DNA of 64,000 nucleotides from Deltaproteobacteria bacterium (GCA_019307065.1 JAFDKH010000020.1:43097-107096); one strand, 5' to 3'; shown: positions 22,782 through 56,591, counted from the stretch's first letter. Notes: a model not told the origin generated them from the sequence alone. Translations and numbers: made by a program.

Positions 22782-22797
22782 TGCAAGGAGCGTGCCT
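22782..22797 (-). promoter_or_regulatory. Sigma-54 promoter of the arsC operon
   Basis: Minus strand reads AGGCACGCTCCTTGCA (GG-N10-GC). Confidence 0.75.
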
Positions 22798-22899
22798 ATA
22801 AAATCCACAAGCTTGTGCTAACCAACATACTGATTTATGGCGACAATATTGTGATCAGGATTTGTTGTTCTGATGAGCCGGAAATTATTGATGCAAATA

Positions 22900-22933
22900 T
22901 GTCTCAAATAGATATTTTTGAGACACTGAGACG
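22900..22933. promoter_or_regulatory. TGTCTCA/TGAGACA UAS cluster
   Basis: TGTCTCA-N12-TGAGACA followed by TGAGACG. Confidence 0.7.
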
Positions 22934-23041
22934 ATCGGCTAACTGTGTTTGTCTTTTTATTTCAGCAAGATACGAATGGAATGTTTATTGCATTTGACTC
23001 GCTAGGTGGACTAGATAAATAAAAATATTGAGGAAACTCAA

Positions 23042-23860
23042 TTGGAACTGACCGGCTACGCCCGCGAAGAAGTTGTCGGTTCTCGCTGCTCAGACAACAT
23101 ATTGGTGCACGTCGATCACCAGGGCAACAGCCTGTGTGCAAGCGGCTGCCCATTAGCTGCCACCATGTCAGATGGAAAAAACCGCGAAACACAAGTCTTC
23201 ATGAGTCACAAAGATGGACATCGCGTTTTGGTTTCTGTCCGCACAACCCCGCTTCACGATTCAGAAGGTCGTATAATTGGTGCTGTTGAAATTTTCAGAG
23301 ATTTATCGCATCAGGAGGCTATGTACAAAAAGATGAAGCAACTTGAAAATTTGGCCTTGCTGGACCCTCTGACTCGCTTGGCCAATCGGCGCCATATCGA
23401 AACCAGCTTGCAATCCAGGCTCGAAGAGTTGACAAGGTACGGCTGGCCGTTCGGTGTTCTATTCATCGATATTGATCATTTCAAAGAGATCAACGACAGC
23501 AATGGTCATAATGTCGGCGACAAAGTCTTGAAACTTGTGTCTTTAACATTATTGAACAGCCTCAGGCCTTTTGACTTCCTGGGCCGCTGGGGCGGTGAGG
23601 AGTTCGTAGCGATTGTAGTCAACGTAGACAAAAGAAAACTAACCTACATTGCAGACCGGGCTCGCAGCCTGATTGAGCAATCTACTCTCAAGCTTGGTGA
23701 TTTATCGATACCGGTTACGGTCTCGATTGGCGCTACCCTGGCAAAAGCAGGCGACACGACCGAAAGCCTTCTGAACCGGGCTGACGCGTTGATGTATCGC
23801 GCCAAGGCACACGGGCGCAACCAGGTAACTGCAGATTATCATCCAATAAAAAGTCACTAG
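23042..23860 (+). CDS. PAS-GGDEF diguanylate cyclase (PAS appears N-terminally truncated)
   Basis: GRWGGEEF, DIDHFKEIND, RPFD I-site; ORF starts at ELTGY, which is mid-PAS. Confidence 0.8.
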   Translation: MELTGYAREEVVGSRCSDNILVHVDHQGNSLCASGCPLAATMSDGKNRETQVFMSHKDGHRVLVSVRTTPLHDSEGRIIGAVEIFRDLSHQEAMYKKMKQLENLALLDPLTRLANRRHIETSLQSRLEELTRYGWPFGVLFIDIDHFKEINDSNGHNVGDKVLKLVSLTLLNSLRPFDFLGRWGGEEFVAIVVNVDKRKLTYIADRARSLIEQSTLKLGDLSIPVTVSIGATLAKAGDTTESLLNRADALMYRAKAHGRNQVTADYHPIKSH

Positions 23861-23870
23861 CAACTTCGAC

Positions 23871-23921
23871 TTGACATAGCATTCTCACTATGTAGTAATA
23901 TCACTATATCTACATAAGTGG
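23871..23921 (+). promoter_or_regulatory. Sigma-70 promoter with inverted-repeat operator upstream of the ArsR gene
   Basis: TTGACA at 23871; TATGTAG..CTACATA inverted repeat spanning the -10/+1 region. Confidence 0.55.
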
Positions 23922-23924
23922 AGA

Positions 23925-24272
23925 TTGGTGAGAATGAGCAAGCTCAATAAAAATCAAAAAAACTGTAATGAAGCGGCCGAACTGCTCAAGGCAATCGCAC
24001 ACCCGCTACGCCTGCGCATCGTCGCCATTCTTTGCGAACATGACGAACACGTCAACGGATTAGCCAAGCGGCTAGGCACCAACCAGTCTATCGTATCCCA
24101 ACAGTTGCGCATCCTGCGTATGCGTGGCCTGGTGGCCGCTACGCGCCGGAATGGTTTCTCAAACTACAAATTGACCGAGCCGCATTTGAGAAAAATGGTC
24201 AGCTGTTTAGAGGACTGTTTGGCTAACCGAGCCAAAAACGAGCCTGAAGCAAATGGAGATACTCACAAATGA
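23925..24272 (+). CDS. ArsR/SmtB family repressor, possibly BigR/SqrR-like persulfide sensor
   Basis: LKAIAHPLRLRI, VSQQLRILR; Cys in helix 2 (AILCEH) and in the C-terminal helix (CLEDC). Confidence 0.85.
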   Translation: MVRMSKLNKNQKNCNEAAELLKAIAHPLRLRIVAILCEHDEHVNGLAKRLGTNQSIVSQQLRILRMRGLVAATRRNGFSNYKLTEPHLRKMVSCLEDCLANRAKNEPEANGDTHK

Positions 24273-54785: not shown

Positions 54786-55361
54786 ATGCCAAGTGTAAAA
54801 GGAACTCAAACAGAAAAAAACCTGCTGACTGCTTTTTCGGGTGAGTCTCAGGCCCGAAATCGATACACCTATTTCGCCAGTAAGGCAAAAAAAGACGGTT
54901 TTGTTCAAATTTCCAAGATCTTCGAAGAAACCGCCAACCAGGAAAAAGAGCATGCCAAACGGCTTTTTAAGTATCTAGAGGGTGGTGAGTTAGAGATTAC
55001 CGGTAGTTTTCCGGCCGGAGTAATCGGTCCTACTGTTGATAACTTAAAAGGATCGGCCGCCGGCGAGCATTACGAGCACACCGAGATGTATCCTCAGTTC
55101 GCCAAAGTAGCCCGTGATGAAGGTTTTGGCGAAATTGCCACAGTCTTCGAGTCCATCGCCGTAGCAGAGAAACAGCATGAAAAGCGCTACCTGGACCTGG
55201 CCGCCAACATTGAGGCCGATAGGGTGTTCAAGCGCCCAGAAAAAGTCGTTTGGCGCTGCCAAAACTGTGGTTACATCCTTGAAAGCAACTCTGCTCCCGA
55301 GAAATGTCCGGCCTGCGATCATCCCCAGGCTCATTTCGAATTGTTGGCAGAGAATTATTAG
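54786..55361 (+). CDS. rbr: Rubrerythrin
   Basis: GESQARNRY, EKEHA, EKQHE, CQNCGY..CPAC. Confidence 0.96.
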   Translation: MPSVKGTQTEKNLLTAFSGESQARNRYTYFASKAKKDGFVQISKIFEETANQEKEHAKRLFKYLEGGELEITGSFPAGVIGPTVDNLKGSAAGEHYEHTEMYPQFAKVARDEGFGEIATVFESIAVAEKQHEKRYLDLAANIEADRVFKRPEKVVWRCQNCGYILESNSAPEKCPACDHPQAHFELLAENY

Positions 55362-55387
55362 TCAAACAGAGACAAGGGAGCCCCGTC

Positions 55388-55843
55388 ATGGAAAATTTCA
55401 AATCTTTAGACGCATTGTACGACTTCGCAATCGGTGAAGAGGAAGCAGCCGCAAAATTTTATCGCGAAATCGCCGGCAAATTGGATCGGGCCTGGATGCG
55501 CGAGACCTTCGAGCAGTTTGCCCGTGAAGAGGATGGACATAAGGCCAAGTTGCTCAAAATGAAGAGCGGCGACATTCCAGCCCTATCGCAAGAAAAAATC
55601 CTCGATCTTAAAATCGGCGATTACCTGGTCGATATCGAAACAAACGCCGATATGGACTACCAGGACGCCCTGATTGTGGCCATGAAGAAAGAAAAGGCCG
55701 CCTTCAAGATGTACACAACTCTGGCAGGCCTGGCTGATAATGAGCAAGCTAAGGAATTGCTCCTGTCATTGGCTCAGGAAGAAGCCAAGCACAAACTGCG
55801 CTTTGAGATCGAGTACGATGATGTAATTCTGAAAGAGAATTGA
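55388..55843 (+). CDS. Ferritin/rubrerythrin-like protein
   Basis: AIGEE..FY, EEDGH, AMKKE, EEAKH. Confidence 0.88.
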   Translation: MENFKSLDALYDFAIGEEEAAAKFYREIAGKLDRAWMRETFEQFAREEDGHKAKLLKMKSGDIPALSQEKILDLKIGDYLVDIETNADMDYQDALIVAMKKEKAAFKMYTTLAGLADNEQAKELLLSLAQEEAKHKLRFEIEYDDVILKEN

Positions 55844-55873
55844 GAATAGTTCCATAAGGTACAGGAGAACAAG

Positions 55874-56248
55874 ATGACTGAAAAACTACAAATCTATAAA
55901 TGTGAAATCTGTGGGAACATCGTCGAAATGCTGCATGCCGGCCAGGGTGAACTGGTCTGCTGTGGTCAACCGATGAAGCTGTATACCGAGAACACAGTCG
56001 ATGCAGCCAAAGAAAAACACGTGCCGCTCGTTGAAAAAACCGCCTCGGGCTACAAGGTAACCGTGGGCAGCGTCGAGCACCCCATGGAAGACAAACACTG
56101 GATCGAGTGGATCGAATTGATCGCCGGCGGCAAAGCCTATCGCCAGTTCCTGAATCCCGGGGACAAACCGCAGGCGGCTTTCGACGTCCAGGCGGACCAG
56201 ATCACCGTTCGCGAGTACTGCAATCTGCATGGATTGTGGAAAACCTGA
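55874..56248 (+). CDS. dfx: Desulfoferrodoxin (superoxide reductase)
   Basis: CEICG..CCGQ, EKHVP, HPM..HWI, CNLHG. Confidence 0.96.
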
Positions 56249-56278
56249 TCTGGGCTTTCTTTAAAAGGAGAAACTGTC

Positions 56279-56440
56279 ATGAAAAAATATGTCTGCGATG
56301 TTTGCGGTTATGTCTACGATCCCGATGCTGGCGATCCCGATAATGGCGTAGCTGCCGGCACAGCCTTCGAAGACATTCCCAACGACTGGGTATGCCCAAT
56401 GTGCGGTGCCGACAAGGATTCTTTTTCACCCCAAGACTAA
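56279..56440 (+). CDS. rub: Rubredoxin (not in the ORF track)
   Basis: [35 protein letters not shown]. Confidence 0.95.
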
Positions 56441-56476
56441 GTTACCTATTCTGTATCGTTCAACCGATAGCCAACC

Positions 56477-56591
56477 TGTCTCATAGTGTCTCATCCTGGT
56501 TGAATGGCATATCCGAAACATTCCAATCCACTCTTACCTGACTGAAAACACGTCCCTTTTCTCCCATCTTCTATATGGCACACTCTTTGCT
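56477..56591 (+). promoter_or_regulatory. Sigma-54 promoter with tandem TGTCTCA boxes
   Basis: TGTCTCAtagTGTCTCA 56477-56493; TGGCACACTCTTTGCT 56576-56591. Confidence 0.85.

Follow-up and report, generated by a model that had tools for sequence, protein, structure and literature searches.

A TGTMTCA-boxed sigma-54 regulon for oxidative-stress defence, probably controlled by an activator with ArsC-like and PAS domains, in a deltaproteobacterium

We identified a sigma-54 redox and oxygen-stress regulon that is probably run by a single bEBP, encoded at 52555–54396 of the window (the whole 64,000-nt stretch of DNA analysed), with arrays of a short upstream box as its predicted binding sites; we assign this reading a probability of about 0.7. 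The regulon is real, while the DNA binding of the activator and the signal to which it responds are what we infer. The conserved core of the regulon is oxidative-stress defence and comprises rubrerythrins, desulfoferrodoxin, rubredoxin, ferritins, DUF255, glutaredoxin, CcdA-thioredoxin, MutM and a flavodiiron protein.

Boxed promoters in the window and genome

Searching the window with the -24/-12 pattern TGGCAC-N5-TTGC (at most one mismatch) gave matches at 22783–22797(-), 35174, 42246, 48476, 50149, 54486 and 56576, and also at 5553 and, inside an ORF, at 26378–26392(-). These nine matches compare with 5.2 ± 2.2 in shuffled sequence, and the promoter pattern alone is therefore not significant. 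Exact TGTCTCA occurred 21 times versus 7.9 ± 2.5 in shuffles, none of 100 of which reached 21, and its genome-wide rate (455 per 6.61 Mb) predicts about 4.4 per 64 kb. Fourteen of the 21 boxes lie 62–174 bp 5' of the seven promoters listed first or just 5' of the activator gene, arranged as direct pairs 8 or 10 bp apart, as direct repeats with an N11 spacer or as inverted repeats with N11 or N12; they never overlap -24/-12 elements and are always at enhancer distance. The initial annotation had placed seven promoters here, preceded by TGTCTCA/TGAGACA boxes that were mostly tandem or N11–N12 inverted, and all were recovered at these places and in these arrangements (50149 with TTGA at -12). It had also described promoter 5553 as devoid of an exact box, and none was found there within -220 to +80. 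The variant half-site TGTATCA supplies extra boxes at 35074, 35082 and 48336, and the half-site consensus is TGTMTCA. Three more sites with box and promoter are located on contigs C132, C371 and C336.

Enrichment of the motif before sigma-54 promoters throughout the genome, proposed earlier as a check, was confirmed: TGAGACA ranks second of 8192 7-mers upstream of 128 strict sigma-54 promoter matches (10 observed, 1.0 expected; Poisson 1.1e-7). Six of nine clusters of at least two TGTMTCA boxes, one of the six (C424) being a coding repeat, sit 40–170 bp upstream of a sigma-54-like site, as compared to 0 of 19 clusters of five control motifs. The genome encodes rpoN on contig C382.

Genes behind boxed promoters

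Two of the boxed promoters lie 3' of the activator gene. Boxes TGTCTCA-N3-TGTCTCG (54387–54403, plus strand), the first of which overlaps the last activator codons (P-V-S-stop), are positioned at -99/-89 of the pattern match TGGCACGCTCTTTGC (54486–54500, plus strand), which is followed by the operon 54518–56440(+) for a small conserved Cys protein (probable true start TTG at 54548), rubrerythrin, a rubrerythrin-like ferritin-fold protein, desulfoferrodoxin and rubredoxin. Homologues of this operon are found 3' of boxed promoters in up to seven relatives. At the same distances (-99/-89), boxes TGTCTCA-N3-TGTCTCA (56477–56493, plus strand) precede the pattern match TGGCACACTCTTTGC (56576–56590, plus strand) and the operon 56641–60737(+), which encodes a small ORF, a DVU0298-family (HEAT-like) protein, MutM/Fpg, a small NIR_SIR protein, flavin reductase and an FprA-like flavodiiron protein; the DVU0298-family gene of relative G006 is likewise preceded by boxes and a -24/-12-like site.

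On the 5' side of the activator gene, boxes CGAGACA-N1-TGAGACA (50079–50093) at -70/-62 precede a match with a variant -12 element, TGGCACGAAGTTTGA (50149–50163, plus strand). The genes behind it (50180–52438, plus strand) encode a CcdA/DsbD-TM-thioredoxin fusion, a small ORF, a rubrerythrin-like protein and glutaredoxin, and their transcription may read through into the activator gene. Further 5', TGTATCA (-140) and TGTCTCA (-78) at 48336–48404(+) precede the match TGGCACACCACTTGC (48476–48490, plus strand) and genes for a 146-aa unknown protein and two ferritin/rubrerythrin-like proteins (48539–50061, plus strand), homologues of which stand behind boxed promoters in six relatives (G005, G006, G007, G013, G014, G017).

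An array of TGACTCA and TGTCTCA-N11-TGTCTCA-N11-TGAGACA (42108–42160) separates a divergent non-haem ferritin gene (41477–42013, minus strand) from the match TGGCACCAACCTTGC (42246–42260, plus strand) and the genes 42294–48346(+) for a DUF255/YyaL thioredoxin-domain protein, a 53-aa conserved protein, a rubredoxin-like membrane protein, ResB and CcsB, which we take as one putative operon. The three-box N11/N11 layout recurs in G007, G014 and G017; the ferritin orthologues of these three genomes have a -24/-12 element, whereas none was found at the ferritin gene here, which has a sigma-70-like TTGACA-16-CACAAT at 42081–42054. Promoter TGGCATAGCCCTTGC (35174–35188, plus strand), also a pattern match, is preceded by TGAGACA (-174), TGTCTCC (-122), TGTATCA-N1-TGTATCA (-100/-92) and TGTCTCA (-77) at 35000–35103. 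Its presumed operon (35225–41453, plus strand) encodes an ArsS-family radical SAM protein (TIGR04167), DedA/VTT, a FAD disulfide oxidoreductase, TIGR04283 and TIGR04282 glycosyltransferase-like proteins, an FtrB-rubredoxin-like protein and a DHH protein. Finally, boxes TGTCTCA-N12-TGAGACA-N1-TGAGACG (22900–22933) lie at -109 to -136 of the match AGGCACGCTCCTTGC (22783–22797, minus strand), upstream of genes for an ArsC-like LMWPc protein (CX5R present, C-x4-C) and a 244-aa 4Fe-4S protein (21550–22767, minus strand). The start site predicted for this promoter leaves just some 5 nt to the first ATG, which counts against it; in G007 and G017, boxed promoters have a Fer4 orthologue (65–69% identity) as their leading gene.

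Conservation in related genomes

Eighteen genomes were scanned with the composite pattern TGTCTCA-N45-140-TGGCAY-N5-TTGC, and the reversed pattern, used as control, had no match in any of them. The composite was present in 10 of 11 relatives with an activator orthologue versus one of six without, counts that overstate independence because the relatives are kin; conservation in related genomes, another check proposed in the initial annotation, was thereby borne out. In eight relatives from six genera (G003, G004, G005, G006, G007, G013, G014, G017; 54–66% protein identity), the promoter directly 3' of the activator gene has boxes about 100 bp before it, and in the aligned, otherwise diverged spacers the box and -24/-12 columns are the only invariant ones. 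In several genera, boxes are present both before and after the activator gene. No exact box was found at eight loci around non-orthologous bEBPs (L013–L020), in line with a link between box and activator. Against this link, there are no boxes near the activator orthologues of G012 and G016 (same family) and G043 (another family), the latter two genomes also having no composite match. A Victivallales homologue (42% identical) is located among efflux and two-component genes with just one TGTCTCA-N10-TGATACA upstream.

Among loci that were themselves picked by the composite pattern or by an activator orthologue, the targets behind boxed promoters in relatives were a small 76-aa protein (seven genomes), desulfoferrodoxin (six), ferritin (four), three rubrerythrin-like proteins (four each), DUF255, rubrerythrin and MutM (three each), and Fer4 and glutaredoxin (two each).

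The activator and its predicted mechanism

The activator gene (52555–54396, plus strand) encodes 613 aa, for which domains and residues were assigned by Pfam, sequence and alignment to Bacillus subtilis ArsC (1JL3). An N-terminal regulatory module of an ArsC-like LMWPc domain (aa 7–154) and a PAS domain (aa 172–283; Cys214, Cys224 and Cys228 in C-x9-C-x3-C) is combined with a sigma-54 AAA+ domain (PF00158, E 1.2e-71) with a GAFTGA loop and a C-terminal HTH_8 (aa 573–605). The sequence hallmarks of a bEBP are thus all found: AAA+/GAFTGA, a Fis-type HTH, rpoN, and -24/-12 promoters with boxes at enhancer distance. The N-terminal 160 aa align to 1JL3 (E 1.8e-25) with an insertion of about 22 aa relative to thioredoxin-type ArsC, and Cys11, Arg17, Cys83, Cys90 and Asp126 match the catalytic residues Cys10, Arg16, Cys82, Cys89 and Asp105 of ArsC. 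An Atlas structure model has the LMWPc fold (TM 0.93 for the matched row). No NCBIfam equivalog model scored above its cut-off for the activator, and we found no published description of an architecture of ArsC-like domain, Cys-triad PAS, AAA+ and HTH_8. Neither the ArsC-like domain nor the Cys-triad PAS had been part of the initial annotation.

The PAS Cys triad (C-x8/9-C-x3-C) is present in all 48 bEBP homologues examined and the ArsC P-loop in 24 of them. The ArsC-like domain is degenerate or missing in six relatives (G004, G005, G006, G012, G013, G016) and is therefore not essential to the system. The start codon of the activator gene is preceded at 40–78 bp by three boxes (CGAGACA, TGAGACA, TGAGACA; 52477–52515), and the interval from these boxes to the gene has no -24/-12 element. 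Boxes precede the activator gene in G000, G004, G006 and G013, those of the last three at the corresponding position. Such boxes suggest autoregulation, and those at 52477–52515 are likely an autoregulatory site.

In the proposed mechanism, arrays of the 7-bp half-site TGTMTCA are the most likely binding sites of HTH_8. Their half-sites are repeated directly at distances of 8, 10 or 18 bp or inverted with N11–N12, and the arrays are placed 62–152 bp 5' of some ten -24/-12 promoters, of which seven belong to the window and three to other contigs. A redox signal would stop the N-terminal sensor from inhibiting the AAA+ domain, and the de-inhibited oligomer would remodel the sigma-54 holoenzyme at all boxed promoters. 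One part of the sensor would be the PAS domain with its invariant C-x9-C-x3-C, which resembles the [4Fe-4S]-binding triad of OrpR; the other, in this lineage, would be the ArsC-like domain, whose full Cys/Cys/Cys disulfide-relay set could report thiol/thioredoxin status. The predicted output would include detoxification of ROS and O2 (rubrerythrins, desulfoferrodoxin, rubredoxin, flavodiiron protein), iron sequestration (ferritin-like proteins), thiol/disulfide systems (DUF255, CcdA-thioredoxin, glutaredoxin, ArsC-like protein), 8-oxoG repair (MutM), a few signalling genes (PilZ, CheY-like) and, in this genome only, the ArsS-family cluster.

Tentatively, the activator could be a two-input redox integrator in which the ArsC-type relay and the OrpR-like Fe-S PAS jointly gate the sigma-54 AAA+ motor. 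A catalytically competent relay from Cys11 to Cys83 to Cys90, re-reduced by thioredoxin, would report thiol/thioredoxin state or arsenate, and the Fe-S PAS would report O2, ROS or NO. If so, a family of anaerobes would have an enzyme turned sensor as master switch of its oxidative-stress response and would apparently rely on sigma-54 instead of, or beside, PerR/OxyR-type control; an integrator of this kind is not known to have been described.

Signal and box-binding factor

The initial annotation had described a regulon joining arsenic chemistry and oxidative stress. Its sigma-54 part, tied to the activator, held up: box and activator co-occur across genera, box positions are conserved, only boxes and -24/-12 elements are kept in the spacers, and oxidative-stress, iron, disulfide and 8-oxoG genes lie behind boxed promoters in relatives. 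Arsenic as a pillar of the regulon is not well supported. It is unlikely that the regulon is arsenic-responsive, with the activator ArsC-like domain reducing arsenate, its Cys83–Cys90 disulfide activating transcription, and the arsC-like gene and ArsS cluster co-induced with defences against arsenic-caused oxidative stress. The activator does retain all catalytic residues of thioredoxin-type ArsC, and the ArsC-like gene and the ArsS-family cluster, above the NCBIfam cut-offs for TIGR04167 (375.5 versus 300), TIGR04282 (180.8 versus 134) and TIGR04283 (215.2 versus 182), stand behind boxed promoters. However, the activator domain and the standalone ArsC-like gene (119.5 and 105.2 bits) fall below the TIGR02691 cut-off of 174.3. 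Despite a marker completeness of 100%, the best genome matches to Acr3 (36 bits, cut-off 283), ArsB (98, cut-off 415) and ArsM (58, cut-off 263) are all below cut-off; ArsM is the methyltransferase that supplies the substrate of the ArsS arsenosugar pathway. Among the relatives, ArsS turned up in G008 and G009 alone, both without the activator, so its membership of the regulon is specific to this genome. Moreover, the regulon persists without the ArsC motif, which half of the homologues have lost, and the conserved targets are oxidative-stress genes.

Binding of the activator to the boxes is predicted. For a dimeric Fis-type HTH, however, the half-sites are irregular both in orientation and in spacing, direct repeats being unusual for HTH_8 dimers, which counts against HTH_8 binding. 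Further regulators are encoded in the window (Rrf2 twice, ArsR-type), and a separate repressor or architectural protein might occupy the boxes while the activator recognises another, undetected sequence. We consider this quite unlikely, since the boxes stay clear of the -24/-12 elements at enhancer distance, track the presence of activator orthologues, lie on either side of the activator gene in several genera and are the sole conserved upstream element. Very unlikely is a NorR-like nitrosative signal, with NO attacking a PAS-bound metal centre and the flavodiiron protein, rubredoxin and NIR_SIR protein induced along with Fe-S repair functions: Fe-S clusters are NO-sensitive, NifU/NifS come after a boxed promoter in G004, G006 and G013, and an FprA/NorV-like flavodiiron protein, rubredoxin and a nitrite/sulfite-reductase-like protein are among the targets, but the activator has no GAF domain by Pfam search and falls short of the NorR model (NF003451; 334 bits, cut-off 476), and most of the conserved targets (rubrerythrin, desulfoferrodoxin, ferritin, MutM) are ROS- and iron-related.

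Comparison with known systems

Judged by sequence, the regulon would be a variant among redox-sensing bEBP systems such as OrpR, PexR and NorR. NorR is a sigma-54 activator of norVW that senses NO by a GAF non-haem iron and acts from tandem upstream sites. It resembles the activator as a bEBP linked to a flavodiiron/flavorubredoxin detoxification gene; the lack of a GAF domain, the NF003451 score and a much larger regulon set the activator apart, and it was rejected as NorR.

OrpR of Desulfovibrio vulgaris Hildenborough is a PAS-[4Fe-4S] sigma-54 activator in which C52, C61 and C65 bind a redox-sensitive cluster; it recognises the UAS palindrome GGGCGYRTTTTGCGCCC, has just the two orp operons under its control and becomes inactive on oxidation (PMC8359166). 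Given this behaviour of OrpR, the response here could have either sign. Both proteins are PAS-AAA+-HTH bEBPs of anaerobes with genes beside their targets, and the negative action of the OrpR sensor on its AAA+ domain is what we propose for the activator. By published spacing, the OrpR cysteines are C-x8-C-x3-C versus C-x9-C-x3-C here, and no ArsC-like domain is described for OrpR. Its UAS and orp targets contrast with TGTMTCA, about ten promoters and stress-defence genes, which excludes the activator as OrpR itself.

PexR of Myxococcus xanthus senses H2O2 via a Zn/Fe-binding GAF domain, recognises CACCG-n6-CGGTG and acts on ahpC and katB (PMC12754779). The two systems share a dedicated bEBP for sigma-54 control of peroxide/oxidative-stress defence and multiple UAS repeats upstream of -24/-12 promoters; PexR also binds at its own promoter, comparable to the boxes before the activator gene. 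The activator was rejected as PexR by the absence of a GAF domain, a different box and targets other than ahpC/katB, those here being of anaerobe type (rubrerythrin, desulfoferrodoxin, flavodiiron protein).

The catalytic residue set of thioredoxin-coupled ArsC (B. subtilis 1JL3/S. aureus pI258 type) is common to the activator. Here, however, the ArsC-like domain forms part of a transcription activator, and the genome search yielded no arsenite efflux partner. We found no characterised LMWPc-regulator fusion (MerR-LMWPc, LMWPc-PAS histidine kinase) in the literature searched. MerR-LMWPc clusters and LMWPc-PAS histidine kinases make the same sensor-like use of the LMWPc/ArsC fold, with output modules that differ from that of the activator.

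Sigma-54 promoters and TGTMTCA boxes in the window

Scanning the whole window with the pattern TGGCAC-N5-TTGC and allowing up to one mismatch gave nine sites, compared with 5.2 ± 2.2 in shuffled sequences, a number that is not significant on its own. All seven −24/−12 promoters listed in the initial annotation were recovered (22783–22797 on the minus strand, 35174, 42246, 48476, 50149, 54486, and 56576). The two remaining matches are at 5553, adjoining a GAF-type activator gene, and at 26378–26392 (minus strand); the latter lies within an ORF, has no boxes, and was discarded. 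Exact TGTCTCA boxes (both strands) occur 21 times in the window versus 7.9 ± 2.5 times in shuffled sequences, with 21 or more in 0/100 shuffles; the genome-wide rate is 455 per 6.61 Mb, or approximately 4.4 per 64 kb. As had been claimed, boxes sit at enhancer distance: 14 of the 21 precede the seven promoters by 62–174 bp or lie immediately ahead of the gene of the candidate activator, a sigma-54 enhancer-binding protein (bEBP; 52555–54396, plus strand), and the other seven correspond to background expectation. The arrangements described earlier were likewise borne out (direct pairs at distances of 8 or 10 bp or with N11 between, and inverted ones with N11 or N12), and the scanned region upstream of promoter 5553 indeed has no box.

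A variant, TGTATCA, takes the place of the central box in relatives and adds window boxes at 35074, 35082, and 48336; because it occurs in both the window and relatives, the half-site is given as TGTMTCA. Half-sites are found in both orientations at spacings of 8, 9, 10, 18, 19, and 23 bp, an uncommon pattern for an HTH of the dimeric Fis type. An origin of the boxes from repeats or mobile elements was dismissed, as the box-to-promoter spacers are unconserved except in two paralogous cassettes on contigs C132 and C371. Counts from a sigma-70 promoter and terminator scan of 41400–61000 equalled background and did not resolve operon limits.

Genome-wide enrichment and additional targets

The whole assembly (6.61 Mb, 471 contigs) was scanned, and 8192 strand-collapsed 7-mers were counted at −160 to −40 of 128 exact TGGCAY-N5-TTGC matches. 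The predicted enrichment before sigma-54 promoters was evident genome-wide: TGAGACA/TGTCTCA ranked second of 8192, with 10 occurrences (seven promoters) versus 1.0 expected (Poisson 1.1e-7). The top-ranked 7-mer, CGGACAC (14 occurrences versus 1.5 expected), is part of a separate tandem palindrome before other sigma-54 promoters, which indicates that the test detects real enhancers. These palindromes, GTGTCCGG-N5-CCGGACAC, lie approximately 60–120 bp before at least seven other sigma-54 promoters, outside the window (C281:50854, C308:11798, C349:6838, C349:11511, C386:5041, C393:1742, and C90:3803), and presumably mark the regulon of another bEBP.

Box clusters, defined as at least two exact TGTMTCA within 25 bp, occur nine times in the genome. 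Six are 40–170 bp upstream of a sigma-54-like site, compared with 0/19 clusters for five control motifs; among these six, C424 is a coding repeat. The remaining three comprise the array before the activator gene, C371 (promoter with two mismatches), and C329 (coding). As targets, the clusters on C424, C329, C36, and C170 were dropped, being coding repeats or lacking a usable promoter. Three additional targets were located outside the window: C132:13615 (plus strand; PilZ protein and CheY-like receiver), C371:7324 (minus strand; lipoprotein and CheY-like receiver, in a cassette paralogous to that on C132), and C336:3762 (minus strand; periplasmic binding protein). The paralogous promoter cassettes (C132:13495–13630 and C371:7310–7443) have tandem TGTCTCACTGTCTCA, TGATACA, and then the −24/−12 elements, with similar flanks; each drives a CheY-like receiver gene and one also a PilZ protein, which hints that the regulon also acts on behaviour or c-di-GMP. 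The promoter at C332:24380 (single box at −140) was excluded; a Cache-HAMP bEBP gene lies directly upstream, and since the promoter's own activator adjoins, this lone box is probably a chance occurrence.

Co-occurrence of box and activator in related genomes

The family of the window's genome (equal to its order in the genome collection used) comprises 18 species-level genomes in 13 genera, and a single orthologue of the activator's sensor region was detected in 12 of the 18 genomes, the window's own included. The composite TGTCTCA-N45-140-TGGCAY-N5-TTGC, which has eight matches at six promoters in the window's genome, is conserved in relatives: it occurs in 10 of the 11 with an orthologue (29 matches; none in G016) versus one of the six without (G001, one match), a contrast drawn among kin genomes, whose independence is thereby overstated. 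Read backwards as a control, it had no matches in any of the 18 genomes. In eight relatives (G003, G004, G005, G006, G007, G013, G014, and G017; six genera, 54–66% protein identity), a box lies 88–102 bp before a −24/−12 promoter directly 3' of the activator gene. Mean column identity in an alignment of eight regions of this kind is 55%, with invariant columns only in the box and the −24/−12 elements; the last activator codons (P-V-S-stop) overlap the first box. Boxes are also present upstream of the activator gene in the window's genome, G004, G006, and G013, and an exact box was found near none of the non-orthologous bEBPs at eight compared loci (L013–L020).

The array TGTCTCA-N11-TGTMTCA-N11-TGAGACA between the ferritin and DUF255 genes is conserved in G007, G014, and G017, with two divergent sigma-54 promoters. 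On the ferritin side of this array in the window's genome, no −24/−12 element was found; a sigma-70-like TTGACA-16-CACAAT is located there instead (42054–42081; ferritin gene 41477–42013, minus strand), which may represent a promoter-type switch inside one regulon. Some results count against a link between box and activator. The orthologue loci of G012, G016, and G043 (the last from another family) have different neighbourhoods without boxes, the composite is absent from G016 and G043, and the first HTH helix differs in G012 and G016 (NRKRAA versus NKVKAA). Of 301 genomes sampled from the phylum, 14 contained the sensor region, 12 of them in the window's family; in G157 the ArsC part only was matched. 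Genome and metagenome contig scans, dominated by a generic AAA+ peptide pattern, contained no close orthologue among the matches listed, and a single match, L021 (Victivallales MAG, 42% identity), extended over the full length. The L021 gene is preceded by one TGTCTCA-N10-TGATACA, has no boxed promoter nearby, and lies among unrelated genes. Judged from the sequence evidence, the proposed regulon is probably real and run by the activator at 52555–54396 (probability roughly 0.7).

Content of the putative regulon

According to Pfam and NCBIfam, the promoter at 22797 (minus strand) precedes genes for an ArsC-like LMWPc protein and a 4Fe-4S protein. On the plus strand, promoter 35174 is followed by an ArsS-family radical SAM protein, DedA, an FAD disulfide oxidoreductase, two TIGR0428x glycosyltransferase-like proteins, and possibly FtrB-rubredoxin-like and DHH proteins; 42246 by DUF255/YyaL, a 53-aa protein, a rubredoxin-like membrane protein, and ResB/CcsB; 48476 by a 146-aa unknown protein and two ferritin/rubrerythrin-like proteins; 50149 by CcdA-thioredoxin, a rubrerythrin-like protein, and glutaredoxin, possibly continuing into the activator gene; 54486 by a small Cys protein, rubrerythrin, a rubrerythrin-like protein, desulfoferrodoxin, and rubredoxin; and 56576 by a DVU0298-family protein, MutM, a small NIR_SIR protein, flavin reductase, and a flavodiiron protein.

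We compared 31 window proteins by BLAST with the ORFs that follow 27 boxed promoters within 4 kb, at loci of nine relatives selected by the orthologue or by the box pattern itself. Homologues were found for the small 76-aa protein (seven relatives), Dfx (six), ferritin, three rubrerythrin/ferritin-like proteins, and the Rbr-like protein at 55385 (four each), DUF255, Rbr, and MutM (three each), Fer4, Grx, and the 53-aa protein (two each), and Rd, CcdA-Trx, the 146-aa protein, DVU0298, and the FprA-like protein (one each). No homologues were found behind the 27 promoters for the ArsS-cluster proteins, the rubredoxin-like membrane protein, ResB, CcsB, NIR_SIR, and flavin reductase, and the sole arsC-like match was the activator's own N-terminal domain. 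Relatives' boxed promoters additionally precede NifU/NifS (G004, G006, and G013) and a thiol peroxidase-like gene (G007). The survey points to a conserved core of O2/ROS defence, iron storage, thiol/disulfide maintenance, and 8-oxoG repair, and so upholds the oxidative-stress, iron, disulfide, and 8-oxoG content originally ascribed to the regulon.

The small Cys protein (54518–54748; approximately 66 aa with conserved Cys residues, probably starting at TTG 54548) is encoded first behind a boxed promoter in seven relatives, and in G006 a second copy stands ahead of the gene for the DVU0298-family protein. No Pfam or NCBIfam model matches the small protein, although metagenomes contain 97 clusters at 64–83% identity, none of them named; a role as co-factor of the response is conceivable. 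Homologues of the 53-aa protein downstream of DUF255 (44520–44681), which matched no known family, are encoded first behind boxed promoters in G006 and G013. These conserved uncharacterised proteins (66–76-aa Cys, 53-aa, and DVU0298-family) become likely parts of an oxygen-defence response.

The activator and its putative signal

The 613-aa activator consists of LMWPc (aa 7–154), PAS (172–283), sigma-54 AAA+, and HTH_8 domains (Pfam), contains the GAFTGA loop, and reaches no NCBIfam equivalog cut-off (best PrdR, 384 versus 795 bits); its approximately 45 homologue clusters bear generic names only. The N-terminal domain aligns with the Bacillus subtilis thioredoxin-type ArsC 1JL3 (E 1.8e-25), Cys11/Arg17/Cys83/Cys90/Asp126 corresponding to ArsC Cys10/Arg16/Cys82/Cys89/Asp105, which we take to be catalytic residues. 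It has an insertion of approximately 22 aa and scores 119.5 against TIGR02691 (cut-off 174.3); residues 2–159 of the ESM Atlas model fall on an LMWPc cluster (TM 0.93 by the matched row).

This likeness to ArsC would fit an arsenic-responsive regulon whose activator senses arsenate, and ArsS-family genes exceed their NCBIfam cut-offs; we nevertheless regard such a regulon as unlikely. A standalone ArsC-like gene (22321–22767), with CX5R and a C-x4-C pair and 35% identity to the activator's sensor domain, also scores below cut-off (TIGR02691, 105 versus 174 bits; TIGR02689, 91 versus 158 bits), and TIGR02691 matches only it and the activator in the whole genome. Acr3, ArsB, and ArsM were all under cut-off in a whole-genome profile search, and reducing arsenate would hardly serve detoxification if no arsenite efflux followed. 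Among relatives, ArsS was found only in G008 and G009, both without the activator. Arsenic chemistry, a pillar of the regulon in the initial annotation, is therefore doubtful, and we read the ArsC-like parts as thiol chemistry more probably than arsenic handling. At 23925–30251, an ArsR-family HTH gene heads a cluster for a multihaem cytochrome, an unknown protein of 710 aa, cytochrome b561, a YeeE/sulfur-transport pair that is split, and a rhodanese; this content is more suggestive of sulfur-compound respiration or transport than of arsenic resistance.

The PAS domain carries C214-x9-C224-x3-C228. A regular-expression scan covered the 53 top-ranking proteins of the N-terminal search, of which 48 had the AAA+ loop; the PAS triad was present in 48/48 of these and the ArsC P-loop in 24/48, some absences being short gene calls. 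Among orthologues, those of G003, G007, G014, and G017 keep an intact ArsC motif, those of G004, G005, G012, and G016 have a degenerate one, and those of G006 and G013 lack the domain altogether; the triad is retained in 10/10 with a readable N-terminal region (G002 was not recovered). This conservation argues that the PAS triad is the sensor's invariant part and that some lineages carry the ArsC-like domain as an accessory. Several paralogous PAS-bEBPs of the same genome carry C-x8-C-x3-C. The ArsC-like domain is also fused to PAS-histidine kinases (annotated 'PhoR') and MerR-type regulators (P0047, P0048, P0051, P0053, P0054, P0057, and Atlas clusters, those with MerR-type fusions having 108 and 158 members), and the LMWPc/ArsC fold may be widespread as a signalling input. 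The locus is a candidate case of an arsenate-reductase fold recruited as a thiol sensor.

A redox signal is a possible input to the activator, to which we give slightly less than even odds from its sequence. In the proposed mechanism, the signal would be sensed at the PAS triad, probably through a metal or Fe-S centre, with an ArsC-type disulfide relay as an additional site in the window's lineage; with the activator bound to TGTMTCA arrays by its HTH_8, it would free the AAA+ domain to oligomerise and open the sigma-54 promoters. The response could have either sign, OrpR being inactivated by oxidation (PMC8359166). Two features point to feedback: the array ahead of the activator gene and transcription that may continue into this gene from promoter 50149.

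Relation to known systems

Control of bacterial oxidative-stress responses is usually attributed to OxyR, PerR, SoxR, or Rrf2-type regulators, which act on sigma-70 promoters. Only in 2025 was a peroxide response based on sigma-54 described, that of PexR, which performs the same physiological task through sigma-54 and differs in its GAF sensor and UAS, CACCG-n6-CGGTG (PMC12754779). OrpR has its activator family and probably its sensor type in common with the window activator and is unlike it in UAS, regulon, and logic; NorR is the third of the closest known systems. The TGTCTCA box, ArsC/LMWPc-bEBP fusions, and sigma-54 control of rubrerythrin or desulfoferrodoxin were not found in the main texts of open-access papers and preprints, in agreement with the earlier remark that no description was known; Kazakov 2015 (PMC4641369) does not mention rubrerythrin, ferritin, arsenate, phosphatase, or DVU0298. 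The window locus would be a second, independent sigma-54 solution for oxidative stress, set apart by its sensor architecture and by its 7-bp enhancer box. By its sequence signature, the predicted regulon is real and conserved, its members are classical anaerobe defence enzymes, and it is of interest for redox regulation in anaerobes.

The GAF-AAA+-HTH_8 activator at 3959–5449 (minus strand), divergent from the box-less promoter 5553–5567 (plus strand), is a separate bEBP system; its best NCBIfam match is NorR (313 bits, under the 476 cut-off), and a PexR/NorR-like metal-GAF sensor is possible. A Rieske/cytochrome b/multihaem cytochrome operon at 14411–19086 is flanked by genes for two Rrf2-family regulators.
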